DNA from: a virus
Taxonomy: Duplodnaviria; Heunggongvirae; Uroviricota; Caudoviricetes
Virus record (IMG/VR): IMGVR_UViG_2802429247_000007
Location: 1-30,935 of that record
Direction: 5' to 3' (one strand)
DNA: 30,935 bases
A model generated the notes under the pieces. It saw only the letters and a program-made list of their open reading frames with translations, did no database searches and was not told the origin of the DNA. Positions 4,465 to 13,657 of the stretch are shown piece by piece. Both the position numbers and the translations under genes were made by a program. How positions within the stretch are numbered: position 1 is the stretch's first letter; each line of letters opens with the position of its first letter.

Positions 4465-4919
4465 TGTTTTTGGTTTTAACTGTTCCGCGTGCGCTCAGCC
4501 GCATTCACCACATCACAAAATTCACTTTAAAAAGGGCGGCAGAGCAGTCACGGAGTAAAACTGATACCGCCAAACGTCACCAGAAAATTGATAACAGAGG
4601 GCGTTGCAGCGGGGTTGTCACTTAAGCGTATGGTCAACCTGACAACCCGGTGTCCTCAACGGGGAAGGAATAACCCCGCCATACTTACCGCCGCGCCATT
4701 TCGCGGAGTGCCACAACCGGAAGCGCACGGTCGACGAAAATTTAACGACAGGCTATCTATGAACCAACTACCTCGCCGTGCGCTTTCGCGTTATGGTCTG
4801 ACTTTTCAGGGAAATATCCTTTCAGTAAACTGTCAGTGCCGGATGTTCACCCGTGTCCGGCGCACGCACTCCACCTCACCCGTGGAGAACTCCTTAATTA
4901 CCAACCCTCAGGAGGGTGA

Positions 4920-9673: not shown

Positions 9674-9965
9674 CTGCTTGTAAAACGCTGAGAGCCGCGC
9701 TATTGCTGGTTAAAAGCACTATTCATATGTATAAACAAACAGTGCTTTTTCAACAAAATCTGCTCTATATACTTCAATGGCTTAAGTGGTGGTTTCTCCC
9801 CATGCTTGGTAGGTATAATACCTTGATGCTAAAGTAGGTTACTCACTTGAAGAAACAGCTAGTTAGTATCAATTATGTTGCTCCAGCTGACTGAAAAAAG
9901 TTATCAATGATGCATGGAACATACGCCCTTGAATTTTTCATTAGATTTTAGAAAAGGAATTGAGC

Positions 9966-10847
9966 ATGGGTTTAGCTGAGTGGTTTTGCGGATTTTGCTC
10001 CAATCTGACTGTAAAAGATGGTGGAACAATTTCAACTAGATATAGGAATATAACGAAGCGTTTAAATACGGATTTTTGGGATAGCAGTTCTGATACTTCT
10101 CATAGTCTCTACGTTGGATCATATGGTCGGAACACAGCTACGCAAGGCTTGAGCGATCTGGATATGATTTTTCAGCTACCATATTCCGAGTATCAAAAAT
10201 ACAATAGCTACTTAGGAAATGGGCAGTCAGCATTGCTTCAAGCGGTTAAGAGATCTATTGAAAAAACCTATGCTACCACTAGTATTAGAGGTGACGGTCA
10301 AGTGATCCTTGTACCGTTCAATGATGGAATTACATTTGAAGTCGTTCCAGCTTTCCTCAATGTTAGTGATAGTTACACATTTCCTGATGCGAACGGTGGT
10401 GGCCGTTGGAGGATTACAAATCCAAAGCCAGAAATTTCTGCAATGAGGTTAAGAAATAACATTACCAATAACAATTTGGTGCAACTTTGTAGAATGGCAA
10501 GAGCTTGGAAGCGTAAATGGGATGTACCTATAAGTGGTTTACTCATTGATACGCTTGCGTATCAATTCATTGAAAATTGGGCGCATAGAGATAAGTCGTA
10601 TCTTTACTACGATTTCATGAGTCGTGATTTCTTCAAATGGATGGCTGATCAAGATACGAGTAAGGAGTATTGGAAAGCGCCAGGAAGTGGTCAGTATGTC
10701 TATGGTAAAGGGCTTTTCCAATATAAAGCAAAACGGTGCTATAACATTTCACTCGAAGCTATAGAGCATGAAATGGCGACCCCAAAACGCGAATGGTCGG
10801 CTAAGCAAAAATGGCGGGAGATTTATGGATCAACATTTCCAGACTAA
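9966..10847 (+). CDS. SMODS-type (cGAS/DncV-like) nucleotidyltransferase, CBASS cyclase candidate
   Basis: Motif GSYGRNTATQGLSDLDMIF (GS-x9-DxD) plus downstream acidic [DE]hhP-like motif (NDGITFEVVP); RBS aaaaggaa before ATG 9966; AT-rich relative to flanking phage genes. Confidence 0.72.
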   Translation: MGLAEWFCGFCSNLTVKDGGTISTRYRNITKRLNTDFWDSSSDTSHSLYVGSYGRNTATQGLSDLDMIFQLPYSEYQKYNSYLGNGQSALLQAVKRSIEKTYATTSIRGDGQVILVPFNDGITFEVVPAFLNVSDSYTFPDANGGGRWRITNPKPEISAMRLRNNITNNNLVQLCRMARAWKRKWDVPISGLLIDTLAYQFIENWAHRDKSYLYYDFMSRDFFKWMADQDTSKEYWKAPGSGQYVYGKGLFQYKAKRCYNISLEAIEHEMATPKREWSAKQKWREIYGSTFPD

Positions 10848-11406
10848 GGATACACCTGAATCTAGAAGGGTTTTAGAAGGGCAGATCAGAGAGTGTTATG
10901 GTCGGGTCGTTTACTCACATAAGACGCATGAAAAATGCTCAGACATTCTCCTATCTCGACTATCTTCTATAAAGTTTTGGCAAATAATTCTCTCCGCCTT
11001 AACTACTGGAGGCTTTCTAGCAACTTTTTTCGGCGCGGGTGAAGTAGGCACGGGGGTTGGGATTGTTGTTTCAACACTGCTTCTCATTCTTAACGCTTAT
11101 ACCAAAGATTATGACCTTGGTGAGTTGGCGCAAAAACATAAGCAGGCTGCAAATGAGATCTGGTTAATCCGAGAAAAGTATTTATCATTGCTTACAGACT
11201 TAGCAATGGGTGAAAAACCAATCGAGCAATTGCAGTCAGAGCGGGATTCGTTACTCGAGAGTTTACATTCAGTGTATTCAGGCTCTCCTAGTACAACATT
11301 TGAAGCTTATAAAAAAGCACAGGACGCATTAAAAAACAAAGAAGATTTAACATTTTCTGAAGAAGAAATAGATGCTTTTCTTCCCAAGGAACTGAAAAGA
11401 AGATAA
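10825..11406 (+). CDS. SLATT-like two-transmembrane effector
   Basis: Start overlaps the end of the upstream gene by 23 nt; two hydrophobic helices (IKFWQIILSALTTGGFLATFF and GTGVGIVVSTLLLILNAY) followed by a charged helical tail. Confidence 0.7.
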   Translation: MDQHFQTKDTPESRRVLEGQIRECYGRVVYSHKTHEKCSDILLSRLSSIKFWQIILSALTTGGFLATFFGAGEVGTGVGIVVSTLLLILNAYTKDYDLGELAQKHKQAANEIWLIREKYLSLLTDLAMGEKPIEQLQSERDSLLESLHSVYSGSPSTTFEAYKKAQDALKNKEDLTFSEEEIDAFLPKELKRR

Positions 11407-11547: not shown

Positions 11548-11931
11548 CTAGCTGGCTTTAATTTCTCCATGTGGAACTACAACCCAGTCGATATGGTTTT
11601 GCGTGTAGATTTTAGTTGATTTCGCATCGCTGTGTGCCATTCGTCCTTGTGGATCGATGCCCTGCTGATCAAAAAGATGTGCTGCTAAGGCGCGAATTTC
11701 GTGAAAGGTTGGCCTTTCATCCATCGGCCGTTTGTCATATAAACCCAGCTTGTCACGCGTAGCTGAAAACGACCGACTCAAATAGTCTGGTGCAACTTGA
11801 GTGGGATGAGAAACTTCTTTGCTGCGTTTAACCTGCCGTTCCGGGATCTGGTGAACGATAAATGGGCTGGCCACGTTATTGCGACTTTCATCAATGATCC
11901 GCTTCAATTCGTCACCAATCGGTGACCGCTA
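11548..11931 (-). pseudogene. Truncated tyrosine integrase (C-terminal catalytic fragment only, about 125 codons; in-frame stop at 11929-11931 upstream)
   Basis: Fragment ...TFHEIRALAAHLFDQQGIDPQGRMAHSDAKSTKIYTQ aligns with the C-terminus of the intact int at 1..1119 and of lambda Int; no N-terminal or core-binding region. Confidence 0.78.
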
Positions 11932-12352: not shown

Positions 12353-12966
12353 CGTAATCTAGTAAAATCGTCGGTTTTTAATCAATTAATTAACTCATCT
12401 ATTACCAACTCCTGGTTGGTTGCTAATGATGTCATAGTGTCGCTAACGGCCTGAATTACTCAGTCCGTTCTTCGCTCAAAGCGGGCTAGAAGGTTAGCTT
12501 GCGTCGGACTTGGCGTATTTAAAGAAGTGCTGGTGGTGACAGGTTATTATGTTCCATTTCTACAGAACAAAATCACAGAAACTATACCCAATAGTTGTAT
12601 TGAATCACTGACGAGACAGCCTCATATTTATCAGGACTGGTGTACGTCCAATACAGGAGGTTGTGGTGCTGGTTCTCAAATGTGCGCTGGCTATTGCTGC
12701 TGTAATGGCAATTTATTGCCTTGCTGTTGTTCTTATGGATCGCCTTTCTGACTGATTTCATATTGGCGAGGTAACGGGAGTTAAGTAGAATGGCTGCGGG
12801 TGCTTGAGGCTATCTGTCTCAGGCATGAACACCAAAGGCAGATAGAGAAAAGCCCCAGTTAACATTACGCGTCCTGCAAGACGCTTAACATTAATCTGAG
12901 GCTCAATCTATGCTGAACACATGTAGGTTAGCCTCTTACGTGCCGAAAGGCAAGGAGAAGCAGGCT

Positions 12967-13122
12967 ATGAAGCAGCAAAAGGCGATGCTAATCGCCCTGA
13001 TCGTCATCTGTTTAACCGTCATAGTGACGGCACTGGTAACGAGGAAAGACCTCTGCGAGGTACGAATCCGAACCGGCCAGACGGAGGTCGCTGTCTTCAC
13101 AGCTTACGAACCTGAGGAGTAA
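12967..13122 (+). CDS. hok: Hok/Gef-family type I toxin (51 aa); in-frame upstream extension from 12910 is Mok-like
   Basis: MKQQKAMLIALIVICLTVIVTALVTRKDLCEVRIRTGQTEVAVFTAYEPEE is a canonical Hok-family sequence (recalled as RelF/HokD-like); upstream leader resembles the hok mRNA 5' elements. Confidence 0.88.
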   Translation: MKQQKAMLIALIVICLTVIVTALVTRKDLCEVRIRTGQTEVAVFTAYEPEE

Positions 13123-13264
13123 GAGACCAGGCGGGGGAGAAATCCCTCGCCACCTCTGATGTGTCAGGCATCCTCAATGCACCCACACTTAACCCGCTTC
13201 GGCGTTTTTCCGTTGATTAACTCTATTATCAGAGAACCGAACTTTTACTGATGGGGGCAGGGAG

Positions 13265-13657
13265 ATGAAGAAACTTGTTTTAGTTGCAGGTGTAATGATT
13301 GCAACAGTAATGTTGGGAGGGTGTGCAGCAAAGATCGATCCTGCGTTGAAAGCAGAAGCAATGAAACCACTAACATGTAAAGATGAAAAGCAATGTGACT
13401 TTTATTGGAAACGAGCGCAATTCTGGTTGGCTAATAATTCCTCATGGAAAATTCAAACGGCGACAGACACGCTAATTTCCACTTATAACCCTTCACCAAA
13501 TAGCCCATTCCTCGCTTATCAAGTGAGTAAAATGCCAAATGAAGATGGATCTGCAAGAATTTTCATCAAGCCTTTTTGCGATAATATGTTTGGCTGTCAA
13601 CCAAACCCCTATCAGGCAATTGTTTCCTTTAAAAACTTCGTTAAAACTGGGCAGTAA
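13265..13657 (+). CDS. Lipoprotein (signal peptide plus lipobox LGGC), function unknown; moron candidate
   Basis: N-terminus MKKLVLVAGVMIATVMLGGCA; mature part with 4 further Cys; own RBS (gggagatg). Confidence 0.7.
   Translation: MKKLVLVAGVMIATVMLGGCAAKIDPALKAEAMKPLTCKDEKQCDFYWKRAQFWLANNSSWKIQTATDTLISTYNPSPNSPFLAYQVSKMPNEDGSARIFIKPFCDNMFGCQPNPYQAIVSFKNFVKTGQ

Follow-up and report, generated by a model that had tools for sequence, protein, structure and literature searches.

A predicted hok/mok/sok type I toxin–antitoxin module of the hokD/hokW subtype in a lambda-like prophage

Toxin gene and mok frame

The window analyzed here, a 30,935-nucleotide stretch of a Caudoviricetes virus (IMG/VR record IMGVR_UViG_2802429247_000007), carries a hok toxin gene on the plus strand at positions 12967–13122. 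Its 51-amino-acid product, MKQQKAMLIALIVICLTVIVTALVTRKDLCEVRIRTGQTEVAVFTAYEPEE, is a full-length match to PF01848 (HOK_GEF; 82.9 bits, 1e-23, cut-off 22), which bears out its first-pass annotation as a Hok/Gef toxin, and is identical to E. coli K-12 HokD/RelF at 51 of 51 positions. The NCBIfam Hok subfamily model was matched at 48.5, under its strict cut-off of 73, and the PADLOC library contains no hok model. HokD, which is toxic when overexpressed, has served as a toxic positive control, and A-to-I editing that converts Tyr to Cys has been reported for hokD (2025–26 preprint, 10.1101/2025.08.07.668861). In the window, the Tyr47 codon UAC of hok is found in a UACG context (13105–13108).

The hok Shine–Dalgarno (SD) region, AAGGAGAAG (12952–12960, plus strand), overlaps the −35 element of the Sok promoter on the opposite strand. 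The gcaaggagaag sequence that had been recognized before the hok ATG is located at 12950–12960, and its CAAGGAG core is invariant through the whole family alignment (diversity 0.009). The mok frame (12910–13122, plus strand) comprises 70 codons, is in frame with hok and reads through the hok start. As had been suspected, the in-frame start at 12910 opens a 70-residue Mok, and its position is the same as that of mokW in the 933W record. The mok SD is the GAGG at 12898–12901. Over the 57 nt specific to mok, the window agrees with 933W at every position (57/57), and the mok ATG is invariant among 66 distinct relatives despite hypervariable flanks.

Promoter, leader and switch elements of the hok mRNA

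A consensus scan placed the hok/mok promoter on the plus strand, with TTGGCG as the −35 element (12763–12768), a 17-nt spacer and TAGAAT as the −10 element (12786–12791), matching the consensus at 9 of 12 positions. 933W, Rac-442 and UMNF18 conserve both TAGAAT and the GCTGCGGGTGC after it. The hok transcript is predicted to start at about 12798, where the Rfam leader model begins. A leader resembling those of hok mRNAs had been proposed at roughly 12790–12966, and a covariance-model search recovered RF01794 from end to end (1–157 of 157) at 12798–12972, with 115.6 bits and an E value of 6.5e-26 (gathering score 59), well outside the range of chance matches. This score is comparable to those of annotated hokC and hokB. 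With the start of the Rfam model as its 5′ end and a terminator remnant as its 3′ end, the full-length mok–hok mRNA would comprise about 412 nt of the plus strand (12798–13209). The minimum free energy (MFE) fold of a 415-nt transcript (12798–13212) has a z score of −6.5 relative to shuffled sequences, and its 5′ end is closed on its 3′ end.

The translational activator element tac, GGGUGCUUGAGG (12798–12809, plus strand), was located from the folds and is invariant in 77 of 77 related loci. Its predicted partners are fbi in the full-length mRNA, ucb in the 3′-trimmed mRNA and positions 12817–12826 in a metastable hairpin of the nascent mRNA; this last, 5′ hairpin is formed in the MFE of 12798–12972, a thermodynamic prediction. 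The GC-rich 5′ fold-back element noted previously corresponds to tac, but the sequence on which it folds back is in the 3′ untranslated region, outside the interval 12752–13122. The ucb or anti-SD element, AAGCCCCAG (12850–12858, plus strand; diversity 0.013 per site), was likewise located from the folds. It covers SDmok in the closed fold (12798–13212) and pairs with tac instead in the trimmed fold (12798–13168). The trimmed-mRNA fold and the Rfam consensus structure place the Sok-target hairpin of the open mRNA at 12898–12935 (plus strand), with the GAGG of SDmok at its base, the mok AUG in its 5′ arm and a CUGAACA loop. A YUNR-type CUGA (12913–12916) forms part of a 7-nt loop in the 933W variant, the MFE of the window closes two extra pairs over it, and the motif is absent from the target loops of several sister alleles.

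Past position 13122, a 9-bp GC-rich stem-loop, GGCGGGGGAGAAAUCCCUCGCC (13130–13151, plus strand), is formed in all folds. In R1, the mRNA depends on the equivalent stem-loop for its stability (Le Rhun 2022, PMC9841398), and by analogy the hairpin is predicted to be the protective 3′ end of the trimmed mRNA. It is followed by the fold-back inhibitory element fbi, CCUCAAUGCACCC (13172–13184, plus strand), which is complementary to tac with one bulged U. In the 415-nt MFE, 12 of the 13 fbi nucleotides are paired with tac, and the duplex has a predicted energy of −25.8 kcal/mol; the bulge is U in 5 and C in 66 of 77 relatives. A weakened terminator, CCCGCUUCGGCG followed by UUUUU (13193–13209, plus strand), has a stem of 3 bp and contains a mosaic junction at 13204/13205: homology of at least 99% to LR-24-type genomes stops at 13204. 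The predicted stability of the terminator hairpin is −3.1 kcal/mol here versus −11.8 kcal/mol for the CCCGCUUCGGCGGGUUUU form of K-12, LR-24, DEC9B and Rac-442, which is also present in most relatives. Because the terminator is cut to 3 bp, the 3′ end of the primary hok transcript may fall further downstream than in R1. The interval 12752–13122, initially taken as the full locus, is thus too short, and the unit runs about 90 nt further, to approximately 13209. The predicted folds reproduce the published three-state pathway of a metastable hairpin, a closed full-length mRNA and an open trimmed mRNA (model and element definitions, PMC9841398).

Antisense Sok RNA and its promoter

A Sok-like RNA had been expected on the minus strand around 12840–12920. 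Colinear transfer of the 933W sokW annotation yields a 71-nt Sok antisense RNA on this strand, running from 12918 to 12848 and identical to sokW at 69 of 71 positions. It is predicted to fold into a long hairpin that is preceded by about 9 nt of single-stranded 5′ tail and followed by a U-run (−31.5 kcal/mol, z = −5.6). The RNA is antisense to SDmok and to the opening 9 nt of mok, the AUG included, and this 9-nt overlap with the mok start equals that of annotated sokC and mokC in K-12.

A search for a minus-strand promoter upstream of mok, which had been suggested as a check, found TTGCCT-17-TAACCT, with the −35 element at 12953–12948 and the −10 element at 12930–12925. The promoter is identical to that of 933W/Sp5 sokW at 29 of 29 positions. 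Among 77 related loci, the −35 element is invariant, and 56 share both hexamers and their spacing. Primer YO-421 of Takada et al. mutates exactly this −10, upon which the antitoxin effect is lost in Sp5, and sokW RNA has been detected by northern blot in Sp5 (PMC8621323). As judged from its sequence, the window contains a putative antisense gene for Sok, equipped with a promoter and a predicted terminator, opposite the translation-initiation region of mok.

A generic sigma-70 and terminator scan of 12600–13300 found the hok promoter and missed the Sok promoter and both terminators. The Sok promoter escapes the scan because its −10, TAACCT, matches only three of six consensus positions. Given that TAACCT is an experimentally validated −10, we discarded the scan as negative evidence on the Sok promoter. 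The RF01794 match was also rejected as the location of Sok: the model extends no further than the hok AUG, and its matches in K-12 lie opposite annotated sokC and sokB. The Rfam ‘sok’ model has the same orientation as hok; it marks the leader and does not itself delimit Sok.

Conservation and covariation of the RNA helices

Eight independent family members have tac–fbi duplexes, and compensatory changes maintain the pairing in hokB, the R1-type locus and three other loci; none was found in IS186-truncated K-12 hokC. The R1-type plasmid loci L007 and L008, which are IS-truncated upstream and have no leader match, were replaced by intact ones in this comparison. The tac–ucb helix is 96–100% paired family-wide and shows one compensatory change, U–A to C–G in hokB. 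Overall, 81% of helix cells are paired across the family versus 37–49% with slid partners, and in the hokD group the values are 93% versus 32–49%. Covariation across the family supports the predicted helices. For the target hairpin, the column-wise signal is weak (64–81% paired) because alleles use different pairing registers; folded sequence by sequence, all allelic variants form a comparable target hairpin, with z scores of only −0.3 to −2.3 relative to shuffles. Among the 66 distinct relatives, tac, ucb, both SDs, the Sok −35 and fbi are nearly invariant compared with neighboring sites. Such strong conservation of the regulatory elements argues for ongoing selection on the circuit.

Comparison with known hok systems

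The hokW–mokW–sokW locus of 933W/Sp5 (AF125520; PMC8621323) is colinear with that of the window, with no indels between the hok −10 and fbi, and about 94.5% identical over 12778–13194. Both reside in lambdoid prophages. The C-terminus of the toxin reads FTAYEPEE here and FVDYESEK in HokW (four residues differ), and the hok promoter region differs at six positions. Whereas the 933W locus is found near the right genome end beside L0139/L0136, that of the window is flanked by DUF977 and a cargo slot on one side and by a lipoprotein-like open reading frame (ORF) and then DUF968 on the other. The 933W locus has no terminator hairpin after fbi, yet works.

The hokD (relF) gene of the K-12 Qin prophage encodes the identical 51-residue peptide, with one synonymous difference in the coding sequence, and shares the 3′ untranslated region, fbi and prophage backbone (dicB-dicF-ydfABC ... 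ydfU-ydfT) with the window, in which the terminator is weaker. In contrast, everything upstream of the hok SD in K-12, including the promoter, tac, ucb, Sok and mok, is replaced by relBE, and there is no RF01794 match.

The archetypal R1 hok/sok (parB) has the same element order, and either locus can be drawn in the three-state RNA scheme: tac–fbi, tac–ucb, the Sok −35 embedded in SDhok and the 17-nt spacing are positionally equivalent. R1 differs in its protein (about 44% identity, a figure reported for HokW; PMC8621323), in its diverged leader with a longer 5′ stem-loop and in being plasmid-borne with a demonstrated role in PSK. The R1-type mok is out of frame with hok, as read from the sequence, whereas that of the window is in frame. 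The closest chromosomal paralog with an annotated Sok is K-12 hokC (gef)/mokC/sokC, which has a similar RF01794 score (118 bits). There, IS186 cuts 20 nt after the stop codon, fbi is missing and the sokC body is shorter (59 nt).

On the basis of the sequence and the predicted structures, the region 12763–13209 very probably constitutes a structurally complete hok/mok/sok type I toxin–antitoxin module of the hokD/hokW subtype. The first-pass annotation had proposed a hok-family locus with a hok-mRNA-like leader, an in-frame mok and an antisense Sok, and each of these features was found at or close to its anticipated position. To our knowledge, hok/sok modules are present in essentially all E. 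coli genomes. The present copy, in a lambda-like prophage, is of an ordinary, already known kind; prophages are enriched in hok (preprint 10.1101/2025.08.07.668861).

Proposed mechanism and physiological role

Combining the sequence and folds with what has been established for experimentally characterized relatives, we propose that a weak promoter would give rise to a stable mok–hok mRNA of about 410 nt. At the nascent stage, the 5′ tac would be held in the metastable hairpin. In the finished transcript, tac would pair with fbi, some 50 nt past the hok stop, and ucb would cover the mok SD, so that the closed mRNA could be neither translated nor bound by Sok. Slow 3′ trimming to the 13130–13151 hairpin would strip fbi, upon which tac would move to ucb and the mok SD and target hairpin would become exposed. 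Constitutive 71-nt Sok (12918 to 12848) would pair there, block translation of mok and the coupled translation of hok, and trigger degradation of the duplex. If Sok synthesis stopped, be it through prophage induction, loss of the element or shut-off of transcription by an infecting phage, the short-lived Sok would decay. The stored hok mRNA would then be translated, and the 51-residue Hok would depolarize the inner membrane. We infer transcription of both strands, 3′ processing and toxicity in this host from the sequence, the models and analogy to these relatives.

In Sp5, hokW–sokW is a working type I toxin–antitoxin system whose −10 mutant loses antitoxin activity. Upon induction, sokW is removed and HokW is found in the inner membrane; loss of the locus cuts phage yield by half (PMC8621323). 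By analogy to this 94.5%-identical locus, the pay-off here is most likely that induction damages the membrane sooner and releases phage more effectively, a physiological role drawn from one study of a related, non-identical locus. Prophage addiction and abortive infection are possible as secondary roles.

The module might instead be intact but phenotypically quiet, as are hokA, hokB and hokC: tightly repressed, causing no killing on loss or transcription arrest and hitch-hiking in the prophage. We consider this unlikely, though it deserves some weight. The chromosomal hokA, hokB and hokC loci were reported to show neither PSK nor rifampicin-induced killing (Pedersen and Gerdes, as cited in preprint 10.1101/2025.08.07.668861), and structural completeness is therefore no guarantee of a killing phenotype. 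Deletion of hokW–sokW had no growth phenotype unless phage was induced, the effect on phage yield was just two-fold (PMC8621323), and the weak terminator of the window could perturb maturation. However, the regulatory elements are very strongly conserved, and the nearest characterized relative is demonstrably active on induction.

The damaged 3′ end raises the improbable alternative that the hok transcript reads through into the lipoprotein-like ORF at 13265–13657, the module doubling as its promoter or leader. The hairpin is down to 3 bp at the mosaic junction, the ORF, which has a GGGAG SD, lies 55 nt further along the same strand, and UMNF18-type genomes keep the same junction. Nevertheless, the five-U run and the UUCG-loop hairpin persist, and the tac–fbi helix provides a strong structure immediately upstream.

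Genomic context

The toxin–antitoxin module occupies its customary site in a Qin/Rac-like lambdoid prophage, flanked by a DUF977 replication-module gene and the DUF968-RusA-Q genes. DUF977 and DUF968 are constant neighbors of hok, found in 55 and 56, respectively, of 80 related viral contigs. The small ORFs at 12527–12755, considered as possible further parts of the module, gave no family matches in a profile search and are unannotated in relatives.

The neighboring cassette consists of a SMODS cyclase (CD-NTase; 9960–10847; PF18144, 2e-50; PADLOC Cyclase, 5e-144) and a SLATT 2TM effector (10768–11406; PF18186, 6e-74; PADLOC 2TM effector, 1e-84). A cyclase with an adjacent 2TM effector is a type I CBASS, and this one is separate from the hok locus. 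The CBASS-like cassette that had been noticed beside hok is hence real, but its functional clustering with hok as a group of defense or addiction genes is not supported: SMODS or SLATT occurs within 4 kb of hok in 0 of the 80 related viral contigs. It is accordingly very improbable that hok/sok and CBASS form a co-selected defense island acting jointly in abortive infection, even though the cyclase and effector lie 1.4 kb upstream of hok, the CBASS–recombinase–hok segment recurs at ≥99% identity in about ten E. coli genomes, and R1 hok/sok lowers T4 plating (Pecota and Wood, as described in citing papers). The arrangement is present in only about 10 of 5,426 complete E. coli genomes, and the segment is nearly identical in all of these, suggesting that it was acquired once. 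Moreover, a recombinase pseudogene separates CBASS from hok, and a 2025–26 survey found that hok is not enriched near defense systems (12% versus 9.4% expected; 10.1101/2025.08.07.668861). The CBASS neighbor is independent cargo in a variable slot and incidental to hok.

The notion of a decayed hokD-like remnant as in K-12 Qin, a toxin ORF lacking working mok/Sok control and transcribed, if at all, from its neighbors, is already refuted at the sequence level and retains next to no probability: the peptide equals K-12 HokD, PGAP calls relatives ‘HokD’ and the terminator is damaged, but homology to K-12 begins only at the hok SD (~12950), the window keeps the complete leader, mok, tac, fbi and an antisense promoter that is the sokW promoter base for base, and the full leader occurs in 77 of 80 contigs encoding exactly the same peptide, with the relE type in 2 of 80 and no RelE near hok in the window.

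A variable Sok-recognition cassette

For annotators, the pipeline label ‘hokD’ usually stands for a complete hok/mok/sok unit with an unannotated Sok RNA rather than for the crippled K-12 form. Beyond correct annotation, the importance of the locus is slight, the subtype having already been characterized experimentally.

The lead of some general interest concerns the 22 nt around the mok start (12903–12924, minus the invariant ATG), which we tentatively suggest could be a hypervariable specificity cassette. These nucleotides specify the 5′ tail of Sok as well as the loop and upper stem of the Sok target. At least 14 cassettes are found among loci with the same toxin and invariant tac, ucb, SDs and Sok −35, and their per-site diversity is 0.3–0.67 versus 0.011 at hok third-codon positions. 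In the window, the Sp5/933W cassette, CUGAACACAUG, sits in an otherwise LR-24-type backbone. We found no description of such a cassette in the literature covered, a body that does not extend to older work on hok-family covariation. The pattern would be compatible with co-resident hok/sok copies being kept orthogonal, either through diversifying selection or through gene conversion that exchanges cassettes. Co-resident copies were found in two same-genome contig pairs only; the cassettes differ in one pair and are identical in the other. If the suggestion is true, the Sok of one prophage would be unable to disarm the toxin of another. The cassette is the sole such lead to emerge from the locus, and through it antitoxin specificity and cross-talk among the many hok copies of a single cell could become directly testable.

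An intact hok/mok/sok module rather than a K-12-type remnant

The ORF at 12967-13122 (+ strand; product MKQQKAMLIALIVICLTVIVTALVTRKDLCEVRIRTGQTEVAVFTAYEPEE) matches the whole PF01848 profile (Pfam Hok/Gef; 82.9 bits, E 1.2e-23), and its product is identical to E. coli K-12 HokD (RelF) at 51/51 residues, which bears out its first-pass annotation as a hok-family toxin. The mok frame (+ strand, 70 codons, in frame with hok) begins at ATG 12910, where a Mok-like start had been proposed and where coordinate transfer from mokW of bacteriophage 933W also places it. An Rfam scan of the whole window gave two matches above the gathering score, RF01794 (‘sok’) and DicF. The former covers 12798-12972 on the + strand, with 157/157 model positions and 115.6 bits against a gathering score of 59 (E 6.5e-26), in agreement with the suspected hok-mRNA-like leader. 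Although RF01794 carries the antitoxin's name, its model terminates in the hok Shine-Dalgarno (SD) sequence and AUG, and it is the hok strand that is matched. In the K-12 comparison loci (L005, 902-1054; L006, 1267-1418), it likewise matches the strand of hokC and hokB; the annotated ncRNAs sokC and sokB lie on the other one. The match therefore certifies the hok leader, not the coordinates or strand of Sok.

The alternative of a decayed hokD-like remnant can be dismissed at the sequence level, as leader, mok, Sok promoter, tac and fbi are all present. The specific precedent is the K-12 Qin prophage, whose backbone is of the same kind: exonuclease, dicB/DicF, ydfABC, cI/cro-like genes, YdaT, replisome organiser, DUF977, then DUF968, RusA and Q. 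There, homology to the window begins only at the hok SD (~12950), everything before it belongs to the relE 3' end, and RF01794 has no match at hokD; we rejected a K-12-type remnant because the window carries the complete module, including the leader that Qin is without. Among 80 IMG/VR contigs with the exact Hok peptide, 77 have a full leader with invariant tac, two are of the relE type and one is of another type, so the K-12 hokD form is the exception among loci with this peptide. The locus is real, far beyond chance, and both the earlier observation and its interpretation are correct: this is a new copy of a known, experimentally characterised system.

Damaged loci were also seen on plasmids. 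In contrast to the window, L011 (607-780 of the E. albertii plasmid NZ_CP030784.2) is a truly decayed hok locus, with a recognisable leader (RF01794, 68 bits) after which both an intact Hok ORF and a hok SD are missing. In L007 and L008 (IncF plasmids, R1-type hok), IS150 or ISKpn28 within the leader region has removed tac and the promoter, in line with the recurrent IS inactivation seen in K-12 hokA/C/E.

The predicted Sok antisense RNA and its promoter

The region is colinear with 933W, with zero indels. The 933W record carries annotations of sokW, mokW and hokW, from which Sok and mok were placed by coordinate transfer (offset 11277). The expected minus-strand Sok-like RNA thereby runs from 12918 to 12848. 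Its predicted promoter lies upstream on the minus strand (TTGCCT, 12953-12948; 17-nt spacer; TAACCT, 12930-12925), the 29 nt of which are identical in the window and 933W/Sp5. A generic promoter scan did not report this site, because its -10 fits the consensus at T1, A2 and T6 only. In Sp5, sokW RNA is seen on northern blots, and rewriting the AGGTTA/TAACCT hexamer with primer YO-421 abolishes the sokW antitoxin effect (Takada et al., PMC8621323). In its predicted fold (-31.5 kcal/mol, z = -5.6), the putative 71-74-nt Sok RNA begins with ~9 unpaired nucleotides at the 5' end, followed by a long hairpin and a U-run. As in the annotated sokC/mokC pair, the Sok 5' end and the mok start share a 9-nt overlap.

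A predicted conformational switch in the hok mRNA

A hok promoter-like site (TTGGCG-17-TAGAAT, 12763-12791, + strand) has a -10 that is kept in relatives; transcription would start near 12798. Three predicted folds reproduce the pathway by which R1 hok is regulated, in the summary of Le Rhun et al. (PMC9841398). In the nascent leader (12798-12972), tac is tied up in a 5' hairpin. In the full-length fold (12798-13212), tac GGGUGCUUGAGG (12798-12809) pairs with fbi CCUCAAUGCACCC (13172-13184), and the mok SD is covered by the ucb box (12850-12858). When the transcript is trimmed to 13168, tac moves to ucb and the Sok-target hairpin (12898-12935) appears, while a strong 3' stem-loop (13130-13151) is kept.

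The tac-fbi duplex also forms in 933W, phage-plasmid hokD, K-12 hokB, R1-type hok and three further plasmid homologues, with compensatory changes (GGGUGC/GCACCC, GGCGC/GCGCC, GCCUGAGA/UCUCAUGGC); it is absent from K-12 hokC, which is truncated by IS186 20 nt past the stop. The fbi bulge is U in the window and, among 77 relatives, C in 66 and U in 5, with no predicted effect on pairing. For the open form, with the structure taken from the window sequence itself, 81% of cells are paired across 11 diverse family members against 37-49% when slid by 1-3 columns (covariation score 0.156 against 0.05-0.09), and 93% across 44 distinct hokD-type leaders against 32-49% (0.057 against 0.016-0.030).

A mosaic junction in the terminator

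In most relatives the mRNA ends in CCCGCUUCGGCGGG and a U-run (-11.8 kcal/mol); in the window and UMNF18-type genomes the hairpin is shortened from 5 bp to 3 bp (CCCGCUUCGGCG/UUUUU, 13193-13209, -3.1 kcal/mol). Homology of >=99% to LR-24-type genomes ends within this hairpin, at 13204, and marks a mosaic junction with a module bringing a lipoprotein-like ORF (13265-13657, + strand; 130 aa, signal …LGGC), 55 nt downstream of hok. The junction is common to UMNF18-type prophages and occurs in 2/77 viral contigs. The ORF has no family matches and adjoins hok in only 2/80 viral contigs; read-through from hok into it is possible. Since 933W is without a terminator hairpin after fbi, yet functional, we do not regard the weak terminator as disabling.

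A hypervariable cassette around the mok start

Per-site diversity over 66 distinct relatives is minimal in tac (0.000), ucb (0.013), the Sok -35 (0.000), the hok SD region (0.009) and the hok CDS (0.006; third positions 0.011). At variable sites it reaches ~0.3-0.57 in 12903-12909 (12907 invariant) and ~0.24-0.67 in 12913-12924 (12918, 12919 and 12921 invariant). These two stretches flank the invariant mok ATG and give rise to the 5' tail of Sok and, in the target, to the loop and upper stem. Loci encoding an identical toxin carry at least 14 different cassettes, each of which still yields a hairpin (-8 to -14 kcal/mol) whose 5' arm holds the mok AUG. In the window the cassette is of the Sp5/933W type (CTGAACACATG); LR-24, DEC9B and UMNF18, otherwise the window's closest chromosomal relatives, have AACGGCAAATC. 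A 933W/Sp5 cassette in an LR-24-type backbone points to gene conversion or to selection on the specificity of Sok, and the variability would likewise fit such selection or cassette exchange. The only two same-genome pairs of co-resident cassettes gave opposite results.

A fixed hok position beside variable cargo

The CBASS-like cassette reported next to hok is real and of type I, comprising a SMODS cyclase (9960-10847) and a SLATT_4 2TM effector (10768-11406). The proposed functional cluster with hok is not supported: CBASS lies within 4 kb of hok in 0/80 related viral contigs, in which the constant neighbours are DUF977 (55/80) and DUF968 (56/80). In a recent survey, prophages were enriched for hok (23% against an expected 5%), but the neighbourhoods of defence systems were not (12% against 9.4%; preprint 10.1101/2025.08.07.668861). 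Together these results indicate that the hok position is fixed and that CBASS is adjacent variable cargo, in a slot between DUF977 and hok. CBASS is followed by a tyrosine recombinase/integrase fragment (11548-11907, - strand; weak Pfam match), whose counterpart in LR-24 and DEC9B is annotated as a recombinase pseudogene with a frameshift and a truncated N-terminus; it is probably the scar of the insertion that brought CBASS. The whole segment 9400-13204 occurs at >=99% identity in ~10/5426 complete E. coli genomes. The smallest block common to the window and Stx phages (12778-13194) begins at the hok -10 and stops a few nucleotides beyond fbi; the mosaic exchange unit thus coincides with the functional hok RNA unit.

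Two overlapping small ORFs (12527-12755, + strand) lie directly upstream of the hok promoter, unannotated also in relatives: one of 74 aa with a Cys-rich C-terminus (…CAGYCCCNGNLLPCCCSYGSPF) and one of 30 hydrophobic aa (MVLVLKCALAIAAVMAIYCLAVVLMDRLSD). Searches of Pfam, NCBIfam and PADLOC gave no match for either. Elsewhere, a full-length DicF sRNA (4534-4585, - strand; 76.7 bits), which has dicB-ydfABC-type neighbours in relatives, marks the prophage as Qin/Rac-like.

Proposed mechanism and role

From the anatomy of the locus and the R1 and Sp5 experiments, we infer that a closed, stable hok mRNA would build up and be opened through 3' trimming. Sok, abundant but unstable, would then bind the mok initiation region and block translation of mok and the coupled hok, and the duplex would be cleaved. 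Once Sok transcription stops, Hok would be made and depolarise the inner membrane. An additional layer may lie in the hok Tyr47 codon in CUUACGAA (13103-13110), whose UACG context (13105-13108; also in R1 hok) resembles the TadA sites reported in hokB/C/D/E, where A-to-I editing changes Tyr to Cys (preprint 10.1101/2025.08.07.668861).

In Sp5, RecA-dependent induction by mitomycin C leads to loss of sokW and the appearance of HokW ~1 h before endolysin; hokW-sokW brings growth arrest ~40 minutes earlier and doubles phage release (PMC8621323). By analogy, the most likely role of the locus would be a similar effect on induction. Prophage addiction and abortive infection are possible roles as well, T4 exclusion by R1 hok/sok being described in the literature.
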